Positions 11,110 to 63,886 of a stretch of DNA of 64,000 bases are shown one piece after another. This DNA comes from Candidatus Saccharimonadales bacterium (lineage in GTDB: Bacteria; Patescibacteriota; Saccharimonadia; Saccharimonadales; UBA10212), in contig DASTXL010000002.1 in the NCBI GenBank assembly GCA_035758565.1, forward strand, positions 83,118-147,117, in the 5' to 3' direction. The translations under genes were made by a program, and so were the position numbers. The notes beneath the pieces were generated by a model. The model did no database searches, had not been told where the DNA came from, and worked only from the letters and a program-made list of their open reading frames with translations. The stretch's first letter is position 1, and every line of letters starts with the position of its first letter.

Positions 11110-13197
11110 TTAATCGACGCGGGCGTCTTGGTTGAGCAAGCGTTGGCGCATAGCTGCAAATCGGCGCTGTTGCTCTAATGCAATCTCTTCCGGCGTCTTC
11201 TCGCGCTGAGGTTCAGCATTGTCGTTACCTGGCTTGTGCATGTCGTTATTGACCTTTTCTGATCGGCCACCTATGACGTTGACCACCGGAATTACAATTG
11301 GGCTACGTTGAGTTTGCTCGTACAAGAAATGGGTAACGTAATCTTTGAGCTCAGCCTTAAAGCGATCTAGATCAACGCGTTTATAGCGTTGCTGCACTGC
11401 CCTTCTTAGCTCGGCTCTAAAAGCGTTCATCAGCTCCTCAGAGTCCTTCATGTAAATGAAGCCGCGACTGATGATGTCTGGGCTAGTCAGCAATGCGCCG
11501 GTCTTTTTATCTATCGTTAGAACCACGGCTACCAAACCTTCTTCGCTTAGAAGCACGCGGTCTTTTACTACCACGCTAGAGACAATTGAGCCGGTTTGAT
11601 CGACCAACACAGTGCCGCGGGGCACCTGGCCGTCGATTTCCATTTTGTCGCGAGTTATGCAAATAACATCGCCGTTTTCGGCATTTACGCAGTTGGCTCT
11701 TTGCATACCACGCTCTACGGCAATATCGATGTGACGCTTCTTAGAGCGATATGGTCCCCAGATCGGAATAAAGAACTTGGGCTTTAGCATCTCGATAATG
11801 TCGCCGTATTCTTCTTGACTAGAGTGACCAGAAACATGCAGCGGACCAATGTGGTCGATGTCGTGATTACGGTGCTCAAAGACATGCACGCCTTTGCGCA
11901 TTAAATCATCGACCATAACGCCAATTAAGGCATCGTTACCAGATTCTGGAATTGGCGTGCTAGACAGCACAACCGTGTCTTGTTCTTTCAGGCTGACATA
12001 CTTGTGTTCGCCCAAGCTCATGCGGTTCAAGGCTGAGTTGGGCTCGCCCTGCCCGCCAGTACAAACTACGACAACTTCGTTGTCTTTGAGGTTCGGCACA
12101 CTGGCAATCGGCACAAAAGTGCCTTTTGGAATCTTCATGAAACCATTGCGCACCGCCATTTCTAGCGTAGAAATCATACTGCGACCATCAAGCGCGATCT
12201 TGCGATTATGCTTCACTGCGGCGTTAACAATCATCTGAATACGGTTGACGTTGGTCGAGAAGATAGCCACAAAGATGCGGCCCGGCGCTTGTTCCATAAT
12301 ATCTACGAAGCTCTGTTCGATAGTTGATTCACTCGGCGTGCGGCCGGGGCGTTCGGTGGTGGTTGATTCGCTCATCAAGACCAACACGCCCTCACGGGCC
12401 AGTTCTTGCAGGCGTTCGGTGTCAGTGCGCTCGTGATCAAGCGGATTTGGGTCTAGGCGGAAGTCGCCGGTGTTCACCAAACGGCCAACCGGCGTATCGA
12501 CCACAATCATGGTACTGCCTGGGATAGAGTGCGTGACACGCACCAGCTCGATATAAAATTCACCGAGTTTTAGGCGCTCGTGAGTGTCTTCGTTCATGGC
12601 AACGGTTTTAAGTTCAAAGCCTTCTGGCATCGGCAAGCCAAAGTTCTGGAAGATTTCCTCAACTCGGCCAATGGTAAAACGGCTGCCGTAAACCGGTACG
12701 CCCGGGTATTTTGGCAAAATGTGCGGCATACCGCCCATATGATCTAGGTGGCCGTGGCTGATCACGAAACCGCGCAACTTGGATTTGATTTGGTCTAGGT
12801 AGGTGGTGTCAGCAATACCGTAATTGATGCCCGGCAGATCAACGCCGAGGTCGTTGCCACAGTCGATAACGATGGCGTCATTTTGATATTCGATAACCAG
12901 CATATTCTTAGACCCACCGGCGTCGAAACCGCCCAGGCCGATAATCTTGAGCCGGGGACTATCGTCGATAAAGTTAGCCCGGCGCTTAGGCTGATCGCTC
13001 TGCATGTTGCTGGCGTCAGAATACTGGTTGGCAATGCGGTTAGCGTCTTGTACGGCTTGCTTTTGGGCGCGCAGCGCGGCACCGCGGCTAACACTGCGGC
13101 CAGTGGCCGTTACGCCGCCGTTATTGTTACGTGGCGGGCGGTTGTTGCCAGAACGCTGGTTGCCCGGTTTGGGCTTATTGTTACTTTTTGGATTCAT
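11110..13197 (-). CDS. rnj: Ribonuclease J (metallo-beta-lactamase / beta-CASP) with a basic N-terminal extension
   Basis: The HxHxDH motif SHGHLDHMG, the beta-CASP region and the RNase J C-terminal domain are present. The N-terminus is a low-complexity stretch, KPKPGNQRSGNNRPPRNNNGG. Confidence 0.9.
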   Translation of the reverse strand: MNPKSNNKPKPGNQRSGNNRPPRNNNGGVTATGRSVSRGAALRAQKQAVQDANRIANQYSDASNMQSDQPKRRANFIDDSPRLKIIGLGGFDAGGSKNMLVIEYQNDAIVIDCGNDLGVDLPGINYGIADTTYLDQIKSKLRGFVISHGHLDHMGGMPHILPKYPGVPVYGSRFTIGRVEEIFQNFGLPMPEGFELKTVAMNEDTHERLKLGEFYIELVRVTHSIPGSTMIVVDTPVGRLVNTGDFRLDPNPLDHERTDTERLQELAREGVLVLMSESTTTERPGRTPSESTIEQSFVDIMEQAPGRIFVAIFSTNVNRIQMIVNAAVKHNRKIALDGRSMISTLEMAVRNGFMKIPKGTFVPIASVPNLKDNEVVVVCTGGQGEPNSALNRMSLGEHKYVSLKEQDTVVLSSTPIPESGNDALIGVMVDDLMRKGVHVFEHRNHDIDHIGPLHVSGHSSQEEYGDIIEMLKPKFFIPIWGPYRSKKRHIDIAVERGMQRANCVNAENGDVICITRDKMEIDGQVPRGTVLVDQTGSIVSSVVVKDRVLLSEEGLVAVVLTIDKKTGALLTSPDIISRGFIYMKDSEELMNAFRAELRRAVQQRYKRVDLDRFKAELKDYVTHFLYEQTQRSPIVIPVVNVIGGRSEKVNNDMHKPGNDNAEPQREKTPEEIALEQQRRFAAMRQRLLNQDARVD

Positions 13198-29328: not shown

Positions 29329-29904
29329 TTATAAGTTCAGAGTTGATTTAATCTGTAATTTAAAACCCTCTAAATCATTGTCGTTGTTGGTTAAAAAAAT
29401 ATCAGACTTGGCTTTGACAGCCGACATACTCAAGGTAGCCGCATCGCCGCCTTCGTGCATTTCGTCCTCTTCTTCTTTCAGGAATTGATCAAACGTTTTT
29501 TGGTCTTCGGCGCTGCGCGACCTAGAAGAAACGCGCTGGTAACGCAGTTTAGGATCGGCATCAACCCAAACTACTTTGCCGCCCAATTGGTGGATTTCAT
29601 CGGCTTCGCCGGCGTTTCTAAGATTAGAGATAACCAAGCCAGCGTATTTGCCGTCTGTTGCTTTAAAAACTTCAACCGCTTTATCCATGAGGATTCCTAG
29701 GCCAAATTCCCGGCGCCACTCGGCGCTAATTTTCCTTAAATTCTGGCGCTCGATTGGCAAATTCCGACGCCTGGCTTCGTCACGCAGCAAATCCGACACA
29801 GAAACAAACAGCCAGTCATAATCTTCGGCGAGAATTTGACCCAGAGTATCTTTGCCAGAGCCGTTTGTACCAGAAATACCAATTAACTGGAGCGGCTTAC
29901 GCAT
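29329..29904 (-). CDS. P-loop nucleotide/nucleoside kinase-like protein
   Basis: Walker [13 protein letters not shown] and an overall small-kinase layout (dephospho-CoA/adenylate kinase-like). The substrate cannot be inferred. Confidence 0.55.
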
Positions 29905-31054
29905 CCTTGAGCTCTTGTGCTTCTTGCATACCCTCTAGATGATTCAGGGCATCTCTTTCTATTTTTCGAATTCTTTCTCTGGCCATTCCCCAGCTTCTTC
30001 CGATTTCGTCCAAAGTTTGAGGCTCGCCCTCAAACCCGTAGCGGGCTGATATAACTTTTCTTTCCATATAGGGCAAGCTGTCTACGAGTTCGCGGATACG
30101 CTCACGGCGAATATCCTCGTGAACGGTTTCTTCGACAGGGGGTTCGGAATCGTTTTCTATCATGTCGCCAAGCTCAGCATCGTCTTCTTCGCCAACGGTC
30201 ATGTTCAAAGATACAGAAGCTCTTACCAGAGACTTAACTTCCTCGACATCCTGAACCGACAGAACGGCTTTGTCGGCAATTTCTTCGTTAGTCGGTTCGC
30301 GCCCTAGCTCCACAACCAAGTCGCGTTCGGCTTTCACAACTTTGTTGAGTTTTTCAACCATGTGCACCGGAATACGGATGGTGCGGGCCTTGTCGGCCAG
30401 GGCCCGGGCTACAGCTTGGCGAATCCACCAGGTAGCGTAAGTAGAGAATTTGAAACCTTTGCGCCAGTCGAACTTTTCAGTGGCTCGATTTAACCCGATG
30501 CATCCCTCTTGAATTAAATCCAAAAAGGGCAGGCCTTGGTTTCGATAACGCTTGGCAATAGAAACCACTAAGCGCAGGTTACTCTCTACCATTTTTTCCT
30601 TGGCCGCCGCATCGCCTCTCTCAATTCTTTTGGCCAGAGTCACCTCTTGATCCGCAGTCAGTAAAGGGTGTTTACCTACCTCTCTTAAGAAAAGCTGTAA
30701 ACTATCCAGCGAGCCGCTCCTAATCAGCTCATCAATTTCCTGCTCCTCACCCTCGTGGTCGCCGTTGATAGTCACCCCCGATTGTTCGATCATGTGAATC
30801 ACCCGGCTAACATCGTGATCCTCTAAACCTAAGCCGTCACAGGCACTGGTAATTGATTCTAGATCAATAAGGCCGTGGTTCTGGGCCGACTCGAGTAAAG
30901 AGCTTATCTCTGGCTGACTTAAAAGATCCGCATAATTGTCGATTCCTGATTCATAACCGCCACCTACCACTTCTAGGTGTGGCTGCGAATAGTAGGCGGC
31001 AGGTCCGTCTTCTTCCGGAGCAATACTAGTATTAAAACTTGGCCCGAATTCCAT
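29897..31054 (-). CDS. RpoD-type sigma-70 factor, second tandem copy
   Basis: Regions 1.2-4 are present: [46 protein letters not shown], and the C-terminal 4.2 [22 protein letters not shown]. Confidence 0.85.
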
Positions 31055-31097
31055 TTAGGCTCACTATACTACAGCTTTTGCAGCTAACCATGAGCAT

Positions 31098-32237
31098 TTA
31101 CTGCAGGTATTCGTGCAGACGGCGGGTTTCTTTGTTCTTGCGCAGTTTAGCCAGGGCTTTGGCTTCGATCTGACGGATGCGCTCGCGGGTAACGCTGAAC
31201 TCCTGACCGACTTCTTCTAGAGTGTGGCTTTTGCCGTCCTCTAGGCCAAAACGTAGCTTTAAGATCTTTTGTTCGCGCTCGGTTAGTGTGCCTAAGATTT
31301 GACGAACTTGTTCTTTGAGCAGCTGTTCGCTGGCAGACTCGGTAGGACTTTTTTGGTCTTCGTCCTCGATAAAATCGCCCAAAACGCTATCTTCTTCGTC
31401 GTCGCGGACCGAAGCATCGAGCGAACTGATATCTTGTTTAATTTTCATGATGTGCTCGACCTTGTCGACATCCATCTCCATAGCAACGGCAATTTCTTCG
31501 TTGGTCGGTTCGCGGTTTAACTCCTGAGTCAGGCGGCGCTGGGTGCGCAGCAGCTTATTGATAGTTTCGACCATGTGCACCGGAATACGGATGGTGCGGG
31601 CCTGGTCGGCAATGGCCCGGGTGATAGCTTGGCGAATCCACCAAGTTGCATAAGTAGAAAATTTGAAACCGCGTTCTGGATCGAATTTTTCTACTGCGCG
31701 CAACAAACCAGTGTTGCCTTCTTGGATTAAATCAAGCAGGTCTAAGCCACGGCCTACATAACGCTTAGCAATAGAGACTACCAAACGCATGTTGGCTTCG
31801 GCCATTTGGTCTTTGGCCCGTTTGTCGCCGGACACGACCCTTTTAGCCAGCGCCAACTCTTCTTCGGCGGACAAAAGCGGGATTTTACCGATTTCGCGCA
31901 AGTAAAGACGCACGCTGTCATCGGCAATATCGTCTATATAAGAGTTGTCCTCTTTTAGAAGTTCTTCTTCGGCTTCCTCTTCTTCCCAATCGCTCAGTTC
32001 TACGGCGTCAGGTTCGGTAGCCGGCAGCAGTTCGATGTCGTTTTCGGTCATTTCGGCATATAGGCGTTCCAGCACATCGATATTTGCCGGAGCGTCTGGA
32101 ATCAATGCGAAAATATCGCGCTGATCGAGTTTACCGTCTTTCTTACCCTGCTCGAGCAACTGGGTAATTTCTTTATCATAAGTTTTGTTGGTCCGCTTGG
32201 GCGCGGCCTTCTTGTCTTCAGCTTTCTTTCTGGGCAT
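31098..32237 (-). CDS. rpoD: RNA polymerase primary-like sigma factor
   Basis: [69 protein letters not shown]. It lies directly downstream of dnaG, as in the classical dnaG-rpoD arrangement. Confidence 0.9.
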
Positions 32238-44678: not shown

Positions 44679-45119
44679 CTAAGCGAAAGAGCCAACTGGC
44701 CGCACCATTTGGTCGCTCATCCTAAAAATCATCTGGCTGATTCGCCAAGTACCGTTAGAGCCTTTGACCAAAATGTAATCAATAGTGCCGCGAACGGTCC
44801 AAACATAGCGATCGCCGTGATCGGCTACGTAGTGCATGTTCTCTACCTGAGTCGTAACTTTAGCGCGGCGTGAGTTAAGCATGCGAACAGCCAGTTTTTT
44901 GATGAAGTGCCGGGTGGCGTAAAAGTAACTGCCGATCTCTCGGCGCCAGCCATCCACCAGCCTGTGCTTAGGGATTATCGCCGGCATCTCGCCGGTCATG
45001 GCCTTGTTATCGATGAATGGATTTTTAACAAAAAACTCTTCTAGTTGCCGCCACTGCTTCATGTCCTGAAGCATAGCAACGCTCTGCACAATATCTTTTA
45101 TTTGCTCTTTGTCGCTCAT
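44679..45119 (-). CDS. NTF2/SnoaL-like fold protein
   Basis: Size and pattern fit (DIVQSVAMLQDMKQWRQLEEFF ... WRISQM). Weak, pattern-level only. Confidence 0.45.
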   Translation of the reverse strand: MSDKEQIKDIVQSVAMLQDMKQWRQLEEFFVKNPFIDNKAMTGEMPAIIPKHRLVDGWRREIGSYFYATRHFIKKLAVRMLNSRRAKVTTQVENMHYVADHGDRYVWTVRGTIDYILVKGSNGTWRISQMIFRMSDQMVRPVGSFA

Positions 45120-45374
45120 TTAATGCCCCCTTTTGTTTGCTACCTTCGTTAATGCTAACGAGTAACACTGAAAATAAGCTAAATGCTATTTTGGTAGCGG
45201 TTAAAATTTTAACTGCTACTGCTTATTATTTTATCACCAGCAAAAATCACTTGCCTCTCCCACCGCTTGGCTTGAGGATAAGCCAAGCGGAAGAGCAGCG
45301 ATAATAAAAACCTTGCTGAAATTGTGCTACTCGTTCGCGCAATTTCCGAGCAAGGCTAGGATTAGATTGATGCG

Positions 45375-45392
45375 TGGCGGAAGGGGCGGGAT
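45375..45392 (-). repeat. Exact 18-nt copy of the 3' end of tRNA-Ser(GGA)
   Basis: TGGCGGAAGGGGCGGGAT at 45375-45392 is identical to 45543-45560 (the tRNA 3' end including CCA), 168 bp apart in direct orientation. Confidence 0.85.
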
Positions 45393-45507
45393 ACCTAAAG
45401 TCGCTAGCGCTCCTGGGATAATTTCGTCGCGTGCTCGAAATAAATTCCTGCGCGCGCTCCTCATTACCGAACCCTGGCTCAAATCCTGCGCTTTCAACTA
45501 GAAAGCT

Positions 45508-45535
45508 AAAGCCGGCCTAGTGAAAGACCGGCTTT
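45508..45535 (-). terminator. Hairpin immediately 3' of tRNA-Ser(GGA)
   Basis: AAAGCCGG (45508-45515) pairs with CCGGCTTT (45528-45535). Confidence 0.5.
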
Positions 45536-45542
45536 ACCTTCC

Positions 45543-45633
45543 TGGCGGAAGGGGCGGGATTCGAACCCGCGATACGCTTTGGGCGCATACACGCTTTCCA
45601 AGCGTGCTCCTTCAACCACTCGGACACCCTTCC
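45543..45633 (-). tRNA. tRNA-Ser (anticodon GGA), CCA encoded
   Basis: Manual fold: acceptor GGAAGGG/CCCTTCC, anticodon stem CACGC/GCGTG with loop TTGGAAA, long variable arm, T arm GCGGG-TTCGAAT-CCCGC, then GCCA. Confidence 0.9.
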
Positions 45634-62959: not shown

Positions 62960-63480
62960 GCCGTCAGGGCGTCTACAGCCGCTTGAATAGTTTTGAAAAG
63001 CGGGACACCGTGATCGGTGTGCCACTTTTTAATAACAGTTATGTGGCTCTGAACTTGGTCGAGAGCATCACTCTTAGCGCCACCATCGTAGTTATTATGC
63101 TCGCGGTAAGCAATGTAAGATTTGTGCGTTTCCCAGTCGGGAACAACCACGGCATCAGGCTTTAGCCAATAGTTAGAGGCCCCCATGACCCAAAAACCTT
63201 TGGTCTTGGCCTCCATAGTTATAAGATCGCTACGCTGATCAACTCTGTTGATAACATCTAATGGCTCTTCCCACCACGCCCCATCGGGATGGGCGCCGGC
63301 ACCAATCCACAGATCATCGCCATCAATCCAGTGAGGCTCCGCTTGATTTTTGCAAAAATGCGTCTTACCGGCACCGGACGGGGCTAGAATAAAGAGACCT
63401 TTTTGGTGGGTTTTGTACTTAAGAGCCAATTGCTGGTAAAAATTCGAACCATCGCGGAGAATTAAAGGTTTTAGTTCCAT
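62956..63480 (-). CDS. P-loop NTPase of unknown function
   Basis: Walker A LAPSGAGKTH. No further motif recognised. Confidence 0.5.
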   Translation of the reverse strand: MELKPLILRDGSNFYQQLALKYKTHQKGLFILAPSGAGKTHFCKNQAEPHWIDGDDLWIGAGAHPDGAWWEEPLDVINRVDQRSDLITMEAKTKGFWVMGASNYWLKPDAVVVPDWETHKSYIAYREHNNYDGGAKSDALDQVQSHITVIKKWHTDHGVPLFKTIQAAVDALTA

Positions 63481-63497
63481 ACGCTCATGATATCAAA

Positions 63498-63515
63498 TGG
63501 CGGAGAGGGAGGGAT
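63498..63515 (-). repeat. Exact 18-nt copy of the 3' end of tRNA-Ser(GCU)
   Basis: TGGCGGAGAGGGAGGGAT at 63498-63515 is identical to 63687-63704, 189 bp apart in direct orientation. A degenerate T-loop-like GTTCGACCC follows. Confidence 0.85.
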
Positions 63516-63556
63516 GTTCGACCCAACCCGTCAAAAAGCTCTGCTTTTTGCGGTCG

Positions 63557-63621
63557 GGCCCGCCTCGCGGTTTGCCTGAGCGGGCAAACATCGCTCCGGC
63601 CGTTCGAATCCCACGCGGGCC
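63557..63621 (+). pseudogene. tRNA-like remnant (acceptor-like stem plus T-loop-like sequence)
   Basis: GGCCCGC (63557-63563) pairs perfectly with GCGGGCC (63615-63621). There is an internal stem GTTTGCC/GGCAAAC (63570-63589) and GTTCGAATC at 63602-63610. At 65 nt, with no proper T stem or 7-nt anticodon loop, it is not a functional tRNA fold. Confidence 0.3.
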
Positions 63622-63686
63622 AAGCAGTTGTCTCGCTTCGCCTCGTACCAAATTAATAAACCCAGCTAGCGCTGGATTCATTAATT

Positions 63687-63779
63687 TGGCGGAGAGGGAG
63701 GGATTCGAACCCTCGCTGGAACTTTCGCCCCACTATCGATTTAGCAAACCGACCCCTTCAGCCTCTTGGGTACCTCTCC
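63687..63779 (-). tRNA. tRNA-Ser (anticodon GCU), CCA encoded
   Basis: Manual fold: acceptor GGAGAGG/CCTCTCC, anticodon stem TCGGT/ATCGA with loop TTGCTAA, long variable arm, T arm GAGGG-TTCGAAT-CCCTC. Confidence 0.9.
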
Positions 63780-63795
63780 ATTGTATTTAACTAGC

Positions 63796-63886
<91 letters not shown>

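Follow-up and report, generated by a model that had tools for sequence, protein, structure and literature searches.

The 64,000-nt stretch of DNA analysed here (hereafter the window) comes from a Candidatus Saccharimonadales bacterium (GenBank assembly GCA_035758565.1, contig DASTXL010000002.1, positions 83,118 to 147,117 of the forward strand). We examined two loci in the window at which the 3′ end of a tRNA-Ser gene is repeated a short distance downstream. Locus 1 lies at tRNA-Ser(GGA) and locus 2 at tRNA-Ser(GCU). The tRNA genes concerned are the following.

45543-45633, minus strand: tRNA-Ser(GGA) with its CCA encoded (ARAGORN; Rfam tRNA, 57.6 bits); the proximal repeat is its last 18 nt, 45543-45560.
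63687-63779, minus strand: tRNA-Ser(GCU) (ARAGORN, Rfam); the proximal repeat is its last 18 nt, 63687-63704.
63797-63886, minus strand: tRNA-Ser(UGA) (ARAGORN, Rfam), just upstream of tRNA-Ser(GCU).

The sequence TGGCGGAAGGGGCGGGAT, which is the reverse complement of the last 18 nt of tRNA-Ser(GGA) including CCA, has two exact occurrences, one at 45543-45560 and the other at 45375-45392. The last 18 nt of tRNA-Ser(GCU) likewise occur exactly twice, at 63687-63704 and 63498-63515, with 171 nt in between. When up to three mismatches to TGGCGGAAGGGGCGGGAT were allowed, the only other matches were two other tRNA-Ser 3′ ends and the copy at 63498-63515. This gives five matches where 0.04 were expected, and none of 100 shuffles reached five. 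The duplication of the tRNA end is thereby confirmed, and it far exceeds what chance would give.

The first-pass annotation of this DNA had described the exact copy at 45375-45392, hairpins at 45508-45535, 45311-45355, 45263-45290 and 45194-45219, the lack of a credible open reading frame (ORF) at locus 1 and a similar pattern at tRNA-Ser(GCU). All of these were recovered; the only ORFs at locus 1 are three overlapping ones of 55-62 amino acids that cross the repeats and the terminators. A T-loop-like sequence, CCGAACCC (45468-45475), is also present as described, but it is the complement of GGGTTCGG and so resembles the 5′ half of a T arm on the tRNA strand. What had been missed is that each spacer additionally carries a diverged inverted copy of the tRNA 3′ end.

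We refer to the segment from the base after the tRNA CCA through the CCA of the distal copy as a unit. Unit 1, at locus 1, and the terminator behind it have the following parts.

45375-45542, minus strand: unit 1 as a whole, 168 nt.
45507-45536, minus strand: T1, a terminator-like hairpin directly after the tRNA, with 12 bp, six of them G-C, and a T-rich tail.
45476-45495, minus strand: diverged antisense copy of the T-arm/acceptor 3′ end, GAAAGCGCAGGATTTGAGCC against antisense GAAGGGGCGGGATTCGAACC (15/20, p ~0.04).
45466-45476, minus strand: sense motif like the 5′ half of the T arm, CAGGGTTCGGT (GCGGGTTCGAA in the tRNA), common to the related units in L011, L007 and L138 described below.
45393-45465, minus strand: GC-rich irregular hairpin region of about 70 nt, poorly conserved in sequence.
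45375-45392, minus strand: distal exact 18-nt copy, ATCCCGCCCCTTCCGCCA, preceded by GGT as in L164, a relative described below.
45301-45364, minus strand: terminator T2, a bipartite stem (45311-45355) followed by UUUUUAUUAU.

On the tRNA strand the order at locus 1 is thus tRNA, T1, antisense copy, sense T-arm 5′-half-like motif, GC-rich hairpins, exact copy and T2. The tRNA 3′ end stands there in direct, inverted and again direct orientation, and it is therefore present as a triplet whose antisense member is able to pair with either copy of the tRNA 3′ end. The GC content of unit 1 is 54%, compared to 49% for the window, and its fold has a free energy of −65.4 kcal/mol (z −2.9). With its GGAAGG/CUUUCU extension, T1 spans 45500-45543 (−28.3 kcal/mol, z −7.8). 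Its loop lies in the middle of a palindrome whose arms of 43 nt (45476-45518 and 45525-45567, 74% complementary) take in the tRNA end, T1 and the antisense copy. T2 has a free energy of −22.5 kcal/mol, which none of 200 shuffles equalled, and is predicted to end the transcription unit of the tRNA and unit 1. A 45-aa ORF with an ATG start on the minus strand of 45327-45464 (MRSARRNLFRARDE...) begins with MRS, as does E. coli Tpr (MRSFDQGSTRAPARER...), a small basic ORF annotated inside the tyrT repeat discussed below. This ORF runs across the repeat and T2, and the likeness is probably due to chance.

Unit 2, at locus 2, is composed as follows.

63498-63686, minus strand: unit 2 as a whole, 189 nt, 58% GC, with a fold of −83.6 kcal/mol (z −4.3).
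63647-63690, minus strand: hairpin equivalent to T1, 20 bp starting from the tRNA GCCA, with a U-rich 3′ side (−28.9 kcal/mol, z −7.5).
63602-63614, minus strand: exact antisense match to a tRNA T arm, GTGGGATTCGAAC.
63498-63529, minus strand: distal end of the unit, in which the exact 18-nt copy (63498-63515) follows a degenerate T-arm remnant, GGGTTGGGTCGAAC.

The order in unit 2 is T1-like hairpin, antisense T arm, GC-rich hairpins, degenerate T-arm remnant and exact copy. GTGGGATTCGAAC matches the neighbouring tRNA-Ser(UGA) at 13 of 13 positions, its GGGATTCGAAC part matches the unit's own tRNA-Ser(GCU) at 11 of 11, and, extended by the two bases that follow, it agrees with the L138 unit at 15 of 15; the p value of the antisense copy is 0.036. 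Units 1 and 2 were considered as homologues and rejected as such, since their direct alignment showed no convincing homology beyond the tRNA-like pieces.

This architecture resembles that of the tRNA-linked repeats (TLRs) of E. coli K-12. These number 22 at ten loci, one to five per locus, in tRNA and rRNA operons; as their hallmark they repeat 18-19 bp from the 3′ end of the gene upstream, and those linked to tRNA genes have no known function (PMC8144298). For the TLR literature, PMC8144298 cites Egan & Landy 1978, Rudd 1999 and Bosl & Kersten 1991, and according to it the stringent-response claim of 1991 was withdrawn in 1994. By the E. coli definition a TLR unit is about 100-180 bp long. 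Both units in the window start right after the CCA of tRNA-Ser(GGA) or tRNA-Ser(GCU) in the same orientation as the gene, repeat its end at 18 of 18 positions, and measure 168 and 189 bp with one unit per locus. The dual terminators T1 and T2 are both found at locus 1, with T1 alone at locus 2. On balance, we judge it probable that both features are TLRs, that is, 168-189-bp trailer modules that end in an exact copy of the last 18 nt of the tRNA. The module is of a known and obscure kind, represented here by a new sequence family at a different tRNA and in new phyla.

The comparison is closest with the TLRs at the tRNA-Tyr genes. In the E. coli genome (NC_000913.3) four copies of the Rfam family RtT (133-138 bits), one of them annotated as rttR, lie behind tyrT and tyrV, and each ends in the last 19 nt of tRNA-Tyr. 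In the RtT consensus (RF00391) an upstream GGGAAGG.U pairs with A.CCUUCCC of the copy and leaves CCACCACCA free. Alignment identifies this strand as an antisense copy of the tRNA-Tyr T arm and acceptor (19/22), followed by the sense 5′ half of the T arm. The units behind tRNA-Ser genes (hereafter Ser-type units) have in common with these TLRs the position directly behind the tRNA gene, the orientation, a 3′-end copy that includes CCA, a length near the 170-180 bp of the tyrT repeats and the possibility of tandem arrays. They also have the internal antisense T-arm/acceptor copy followed by the sense T-arm 5′ half, and are predicted to form the same outer helix between antisense segment and 3′-end copy with an unpaired NCCA tail. 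They differ in that RtT belongs to tRNA-Tyr in Enterobacteria and the Ser-type units to tRNA-Ser in Saccharibacteria and Clostridia. Ser-type units have a terminator-like hairpin and a palindrome between tRNA and unit, both of which the tyrT units lack, and the tyrT-tyrV loci hold four copies compared to one per locus in the window. A resemblance between GTTTGCC...GGCAAAC-CGCGAGG in unit 2 and GTTGCC...GGCAAC-GACCCGAAGG in RtT was found not to be significant.

The TLRs of the rrn operons are alike in another respect, as they too consist of a stable-RNA gene, T1, a unit with a 3′-end copy, and T2. The rrnB unit measures 168 bp, the same as unit 1, and contains T1, a T-arm-like palindrome (CAAATCCGC...GCGGATTTGAAC), the repeat and T2. 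This palindrome, CAAATCCGCCGGGAGCGGATTTGAAC at about 440-460 of the rrnB sequence L176, carries the same GGATTTGAAC motif as the Ser-type units, though the upstream gene is 5S rRNA. The rrn repeats differ in this upstream gene and in the placing of the repeat, which has 13 nt inside the gene and 5 nt beyond its mature 3′ end, and the rrnB unit contains no antisense copy of the 5S end (p 0.88). Small RNAs from the TLRs of rrnA, rrnB and rrnD (rrA, rrB and rrF) arise between T1 and T2 by read-through of T1, which is 87% efficient; they are processed near the repeat by RNase E, whose recognition of them has been proposed, and bind CsrA and Hfq through GGA motifs (PMC8144298). Such CsrA and Hfq binding and RNase E processing are not to be assumed for a Saccharibacterium.

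We compared locus 1 with the same site in other genomes, where the synteny of tRNA-Ser(GGA) and an ABC transporter gene is kept across Saccharibacteria. The distant, syntenic Saccharibacterium L011 (58% identity in the ATPase) has a 161-nt unit with its parts in a like order. The repeat there, ATCCCGCCTCTTCCGCCA, and the opening 7 nt of the trailer, GGAAGAG, both match its own tRNA, which differs from the window tRNA by a compensatory acceptor change (GGAAGAG/CTCTTCC). Related, partly decayed units lie around an assembly gap in L007. Among closer relatives, L163 (86% identity) is empty, with the conserved promoter of the SnoaL_4 gene within about 30 nt of the CCA; L157 (87%) keeps T1 and the T-arm-like motifs and lacks the distal copy; L162 (77%) keeps the trailer start alone. 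This trailer start, GGAAGGTAAAGC, follows the same tRNA type in both L157 and L162, neither of which has a distal copy, so the proximal trailer belongs to the tRNA gene itself. In L164 (86%) an unrelated cargo of 159 nt lies behind an inverted tRNA gene and leads up to the same GGTATCCCGCCCCTTCCGCCA, a unit of 177 bp in all, and in L166 and L167 the tRNA gene is inverted and no unit is present. A 1.2-kb insert behind the tRNA in L159 was set aside, as it has neither a copy of the tRNA end nor an integrase.

The site is also variable in the tRNA gene itself. Two very different tRNA-Ser(GGA) bodies occupy it, one in L163, L164, L165 and L159 and the other in the window, L157, L162 and L011; their D arms, anticodon stems and variable arms are unlike, in genomes with 75-87% ATPase identity (58% for L011). 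In the closest relatives the last ~29 nt of the tRNA are identical across both body types, and the comparison suggests replacement of the whole tRNA-Ser(GGA) gene at this site. In L164 (714-804), L166 (174-263) and L167 (59-148) its orientation with respect to the ABC transporter gene is reversed, and the distal 3′-end copy in L164 abuts what is the tRNA promoter region in other genomes. Judged by these arrangements, the tRNA-Ser(GGA) locus is a putative rearrangement hot spot. For locus 2, relatives were sought through the 174-aa ORF beside it; their gene tables leave no room for the tRNA pair beside the ORF, and no tRNA scan was made.

Outside Saccharibacteria, a pattern scan of metagenomes gave 19 matches, of which one, L138, was real and the other 18 were due to chance. 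The pattern demanded part of the motif block common to the units, but not the adjacent tRNA-Ser, the 22-nt identity or the tandem layout found there. L138 is a Clostridia contig (its RodA is 89% identical to that of a 'Clostridia bacterium') on which tRNA-Ser(UGA) and tRNA-Ser(GCU) are followed by tandem units with a period of 153 bp (1.9 copies, 98%). Each unit ends in the last 22 nt of the tRNA, and a decayed third unit lies behind them. After the two full units, 11390-11460 holds a mini-unit, GTGGATTTGAAC-GGACCGCCCCGCAGGGGGGC-AAATCCCAC, made up solely of a single GC hairpin with T-arm halves, inverted and direct, on either side; it may be a minimal form or a product of decay.

Taken over all loci, the repeat is 18 nt long at both window loci and in L011 and L164, 22 nt in L138 and, measured alike, 19 nt at E. 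coli tyrV. The units measure 168 and 189 bp in the window, 161 in L011, 153 in L138, 177 in L164, 178 at E. coli tyrV and 168 at rrnB, and at least five units behind four different tRNA genes all fall within 153-189 bp. The antisense copy scores p 0.01 in L011, 0.002 in L138 and <0.002 in E. coli RtT. These regularities bear on the simplest alternative, in which the units are neutral debris, decayed tandem duplicates of the tRNA gene or of its 3′ part that are functionless both as DNA and as RNA. Decay should not have spared 18-22 nt in every case (both window loci, L011, L164, L138 and the four E. coli copies) beside bases that are unrecognisable, nor is the narrow distribution of unit sizes expected from it. 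The layout is moreover kept between genomes that are 58% identical in a neighbouring protein, in a lineage with small genomes. Remnants of a tRNA are indeed present, since degenerate T-arm sequences stand directly 5′ of the exact copy (GGGTTGGGTCGAAC before ATCCC in unit 2 and GGT before ATCCC in unit 1) and there are short matches to other tRNA parts, such as GAGCACGC. Tandem tRNA genes and TLRs coexist at E. coli tyrT/tyrV, and the unit is dispensable in relatives, both of which would suit debris. The units themselves, however, fit no tRNA model or cloverleaf, as ARAGORN and Rfam found only the three real tRNAs. We regard neutral debris as a very unlikely explanation.

The patchy occupation of the site raises a second alternative, the main rival of the TLR interpretation, which we hold to be unlikely. 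It states that the units are miniature non-autonomous integrative or mobile elements whose core of about 150-170 bp moves between tRNA-Ser genes by means of a recombinase encoded elsewhere, with the 18-22-nt direct repeats as attL/attR or as a target duplication from the local tRNA end. The repeats do start in the T loop, and among relatives 86-87% identical one site is empty (L163), another holds other cargo (L164) and a third is decayed (L157); the tRNA gene inversions and the replacement of the tRNA body at locus 1 point the same way. On the other hand, the tRNA-adjacent trailer start is kept with the tRNA type even without a unit (L162), and the flanks of occupied and empty sites are not cleanly colinear. 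The T-loop bases 5′ of the identity block also differ (TTCGA and TAGGT), which would be awkward for a crossover in the T loop.

An att-type footprint was what the first-pass annotation had proposed, left by a decayed island or a miniature element, with an unrecognised structured non-coding RNA locus as a further option. The direct repeat and an unoccupied tRNA site, that in L163, are in keeping with this; an integrase, a full-length island carrying one, and a copy on a phage or plasmid were not found. The integrase-scar proposal thus has partial support only. Decayed islands are not supported, because independent decay would not yield uniform units of 153-189 bp. The miniature element and the structured RNA locus are both compatible with the evidence, the former being the less likely of the two. 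Nor did the suggested search for the spacer on episomal contigs bear fruit, as no copy was present on viral contigs, phages or plasmids: motif scans of viral contigs gave 57 matches, all due to chance in unrelated and mostly coding-looking sequence, a more specific pattern gave none, and BLAST found no match for either unit in phages or for unit 1 in plasmids. Of the 43 non-overlapping ORFs in the window with a length of 170 aa or more, 34 were scanned; none showed a recombinase domain (Pfam, E ≤ 0.001), 11 matched no family, and no integrase lies beside the units in L011, L138 and L164.

The similarity of the motif block is significant between unit 1 and the units of L011 and L138, and between unit 2 and an L138 unit. 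GGATTYGA..GGGTTCGGTARTGA..GGAKCGC and the 15/15 match GTGGGATTCGAACGG are common to Saccharibacteria and the Clostridia contig at different tRNA-Ser isoacceptors, and the terminal repeat always matches the local tRNA, as it would if an element had moved; against this, L138 was found by a pattern that required part of these shared motifs. Related cores were seen only behind tRNA-Ser genes. In E. coli, the cores of RtT and rrB are alike (p 0.003), yet they end in tRNA-Tyr and 5S sequence, respectively, which also suits a mobile core. The TTCAAAT-type loop of the antisense copy is not that of the unit's own tRNA in the window or in L011. A matrix of own against foreign tRNAs for the antisense copies was tried as well and did not discriminate among Ser-type units. 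The attP regions of tRNA-integrating elements carry a tRNA 3′ end and a terminator. In like manner, each unit brings its own tRNA 3′ end and terminator, and it has in common with attL/attR elements a direct tRNA 3′ repeat from the T loop, an element-side copy that restores the tRNA end and brings a terminator, and empty sites. It differs from them in having no integrase or cargo, only 150-171 bp between the repeats, no episomal copy found and an internal inverted copy of the target.

A bolder form of the mobile-element idea would make use of that inverted copy. The attP(+) site of CTX-phi and the attC sites of integrons are single-strand recombination sites that fold back, and they offer no more than a lead. 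The two inverted, imperfect, target-like copies about 90 nt apart in a unit could likewise fold into a duplex that mimics the target, which would here be the T-arm/acceptor end of the tRNA gene. It is conceivable, if quite unlikely, that the Ser-type units (both in the window, L011 and L138) are tiny non-autonomous elements that home to tRNA-Ser 3′ ends across phyla. That the inverted and direct copies fold back, as single-stranded DNA or RNA, into a T-arm/acceptor mimic for a host or helper recombinase is a similarly doubtful part of this idea, and the same low probability applies to a CTX-phi attP-like or attC-like process in which the terminal repeat of 18-22 nt would be regenerated from each target. 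The analogy is also incomplete, as there is no sign here of single-stranded DNA, of a Xer- or IntI-type recombinase, or of mobility. If the idea were true, the E. coli TLRs, with their homologous cores and their tRNA-Tyr or 5S ends, would be the same phenomenon, and a 45-year-old oddity would be explained.

RNA folding was used to compare the units at another level. Unconstrained minimum free energy (MFE) folds of the cores of unit 1, the first L138 unit and E. coli RtT all close the outer helix and leave the NCCA tail unpaired; this helix is formed by the antisense copy paired with the repeated tRNA end. The L138 core folds into a clean three-way junction (−63.9 kcal/mol), and the outer helix of unit 1 is weaker, with 10 of 13 positions paired by inspection. 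In an RNAalifold consensus of five cores the outer helix alone was kept, with two compensated pairs; only the GGGAU/AUCCC core was common, and MAFFT misaligned the E. coli sequence. Since both strands derive from the same tRNA end, covariation in this helix is not independent evidence of an RNA function. Other pairings are available as well. Across T1, the tRNA's own end is a possible partner for the antisense copy, and in unit 1 and L011 the trailer start (GGAAGG or GGAAGAG) can close an acceptor-like stem with the distal copy. In the MFE fold of the whole precursor, 45300-45633, the 5′ acceptor strand of the tRNA pairs with the distal copy, and the tRNA's own T arm and 3′ end pair with the antisense copy. 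Read-through transcripts could, according to these folds, misfold or switch between two alternative tRNA 3′ ends.

The acceptor-like stem invites a third alternative, that of an independent tRNA-like RNA gene with a function in trans, consisting of the stem (GGAAGG.../...CCUUCC-GCCA) and three arms. RNase P would cut between CCA and GGAAGG, which would mature the tRNA 3′ end and free an RNA that is perhaps charged or acts as a decoy. The MFE fold of unit 1 closes such a 6-bp stem with a free GCCA tail and three arms, there is no spacer between CCA and GGAAGG, and in L011 the full 7/7 acceptor complement covaries with its tRNA. In L011, however, this fold is 2.7 kcal/mol worse than the MFE. GGAAGG also pairs inside the extended T1 and is present in L157 and L162 without a distal copy, and no 5′ acceptor strand follows the CCA in unit 2 or in the L138, L164 and E. 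coli units. No tRNA-like, tmRNA or YrlA family of Rfam matches the unit itself. We therefore consider an independent tRNA-like gene very improbable. The Rfam covariance scan, which the first-pass annotation had suggested, returned only tRNAs and chance matches below threshold; RtT, YrlA and tmRNA were not found on the units either at gathering thresholds (window, L011, L138, L164 and L007) or at E ≤ 10 (both window units).

We propose the following course of events for a TLR origin of the units. At the DNA level, the tRNA 3′ end would be duplicated about its terminator, through a palindrome or a template switch, and the triplet would be the outcome. Its short direct repeats would then permit tandem amplification, as in L138 and at E. 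coli tyrT, and precise loss, as at the empty site of L163, and the patchy distribution would thereby be explained. At the RNA level, polymerase that passes a leaky T1 would transcribe the unit up to T2. The antisense segment is predicted to pair with the repeated 3′ end into a long helix with a free NCCA tail, and this acceptor/T-stem-like end would be trimmed and protected like a tRNA 3′ end and resist exonucleases. The RNase E proposal made for E. coli may not transfer, since the window encodes PNPase and RNase J; 3′ exonucleases such as this PNPase would be the likely enzymes. A discrete RNA of about 165 nt would result, its level tracking transcription of the tRNA operon, and a read-through trailer RNA with a tRNA-like 3′ end is the most likely identity of the module. 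A sponge of RyhB and RybB that derives from a tRNA-operon trailer, the short RNA 3′ETS-leuZ, is cited in PMC8144298. It is alike in its origin from a transcribed trailer and in the coupling of its level to tRNA transcription, and differs in that it contains no copy of a tRNA end.

Several observations weigh against this interpretation. The Ser-type units show no significant similarity to E. coli TLR cores, and Rfam RtT matches neither window unit at its gathering threshold (45 bits) or at E ≤ 10, so the likeness is architectural and could reflect convergence. The antisense copy in unit 1 is only marginally significant. Apart from the tRNA-like motifs, the interior of the window unit is poorly conserved in L011, both in sequence and in structure. 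In L164 the 18-nt repeat encloses an unrelated cargo that lacks an antisense copy, and close relatives without a unit indicate that it is dispensable. At locus 2 no second terminator was found, and the ATG of the next ORF (63480) is 17 nt past the repeat. A perfect tract of about 18 nt would be too short for ordinary gene conversion, and cores common across phyla with ends that always match the local tRNA may be explained equally well by a mobile element.

The hairpin at 45263-45290 is a perfect 11/11-bp stem (16 bp and −24.9 kcal/mol when extended) without a T-run. Running into its 5′ arm on the minus strand, about 100 nt past the distal copy, is ATCGCTGCTCTTCCGC, which matches the tRNA end ATCCCGCCCCTTCCGC at 11 of 16 positions; the stretch may be a decayed second unit, a match of this kind not being significant alone. 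The 13-bp palindrome at 45194-45219 (GTAGCGGTTAAAA/TTTTAACTGCTAC) lies just downstream of a conserved −10-like GTGATAAAAT and precedes the SnoaL_4 gene (44679-45119, minus strand). It is kept in L157, L163 and L164 with partly compensated changes, and by its position it looks like an operator or a hairpin in the 5′ untranslated region of that gene and not like a part of the tRNA-linked unit. At locus 2, the ORF that starts at 63480 is conserved, encodes 174 aa with a P-loop-like GAGKT motif and has no Pfam match. With no terminator in between, it may be co-transcribed with the tRNA operon and unit 2.

The neighbours of the two loci are SnoaL_4, flavodoxin-like, ABC/MacB and P-loop ORFs. Other ORFs of the window encode ArgRS, ValRS, ABC/MacB, PGI-like and similar proteins and are recognisable as housekeeping or neighbour genes. 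Elsewhere in the window, 29900-32237 holds two tandem sigma-70 family genes (385 and 379 aa, both with regions 1.2-4) that adjoin a primase gene.

TLRs have been known in E. coli since 1978, and in the searchable literature they are still an enterobacterial curiosity, the tRNA-linked ones without an assigned function. A TLR-like architecture, with an exact copy of 18-22 nt, an antisense copy, a length of about 150-190 bp and a terminator sandwich, stands behind tRNA-Ser genes in a Saccharibacterium and on a Clostridia contig. The comparison suggests that such modules were generated or selected repeatedly across bacteria, or have spread among them. Given this architecture beyond Enterobacteria, the origin and the role of TLRs become tractable comparative problems. 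Island finders that use tRNA 3′ fragments as att sites will meet TLR-like modules as false positives, and the modules mark sites where tRNA operons may yield extra structured RNAs with tRNA-like ends.

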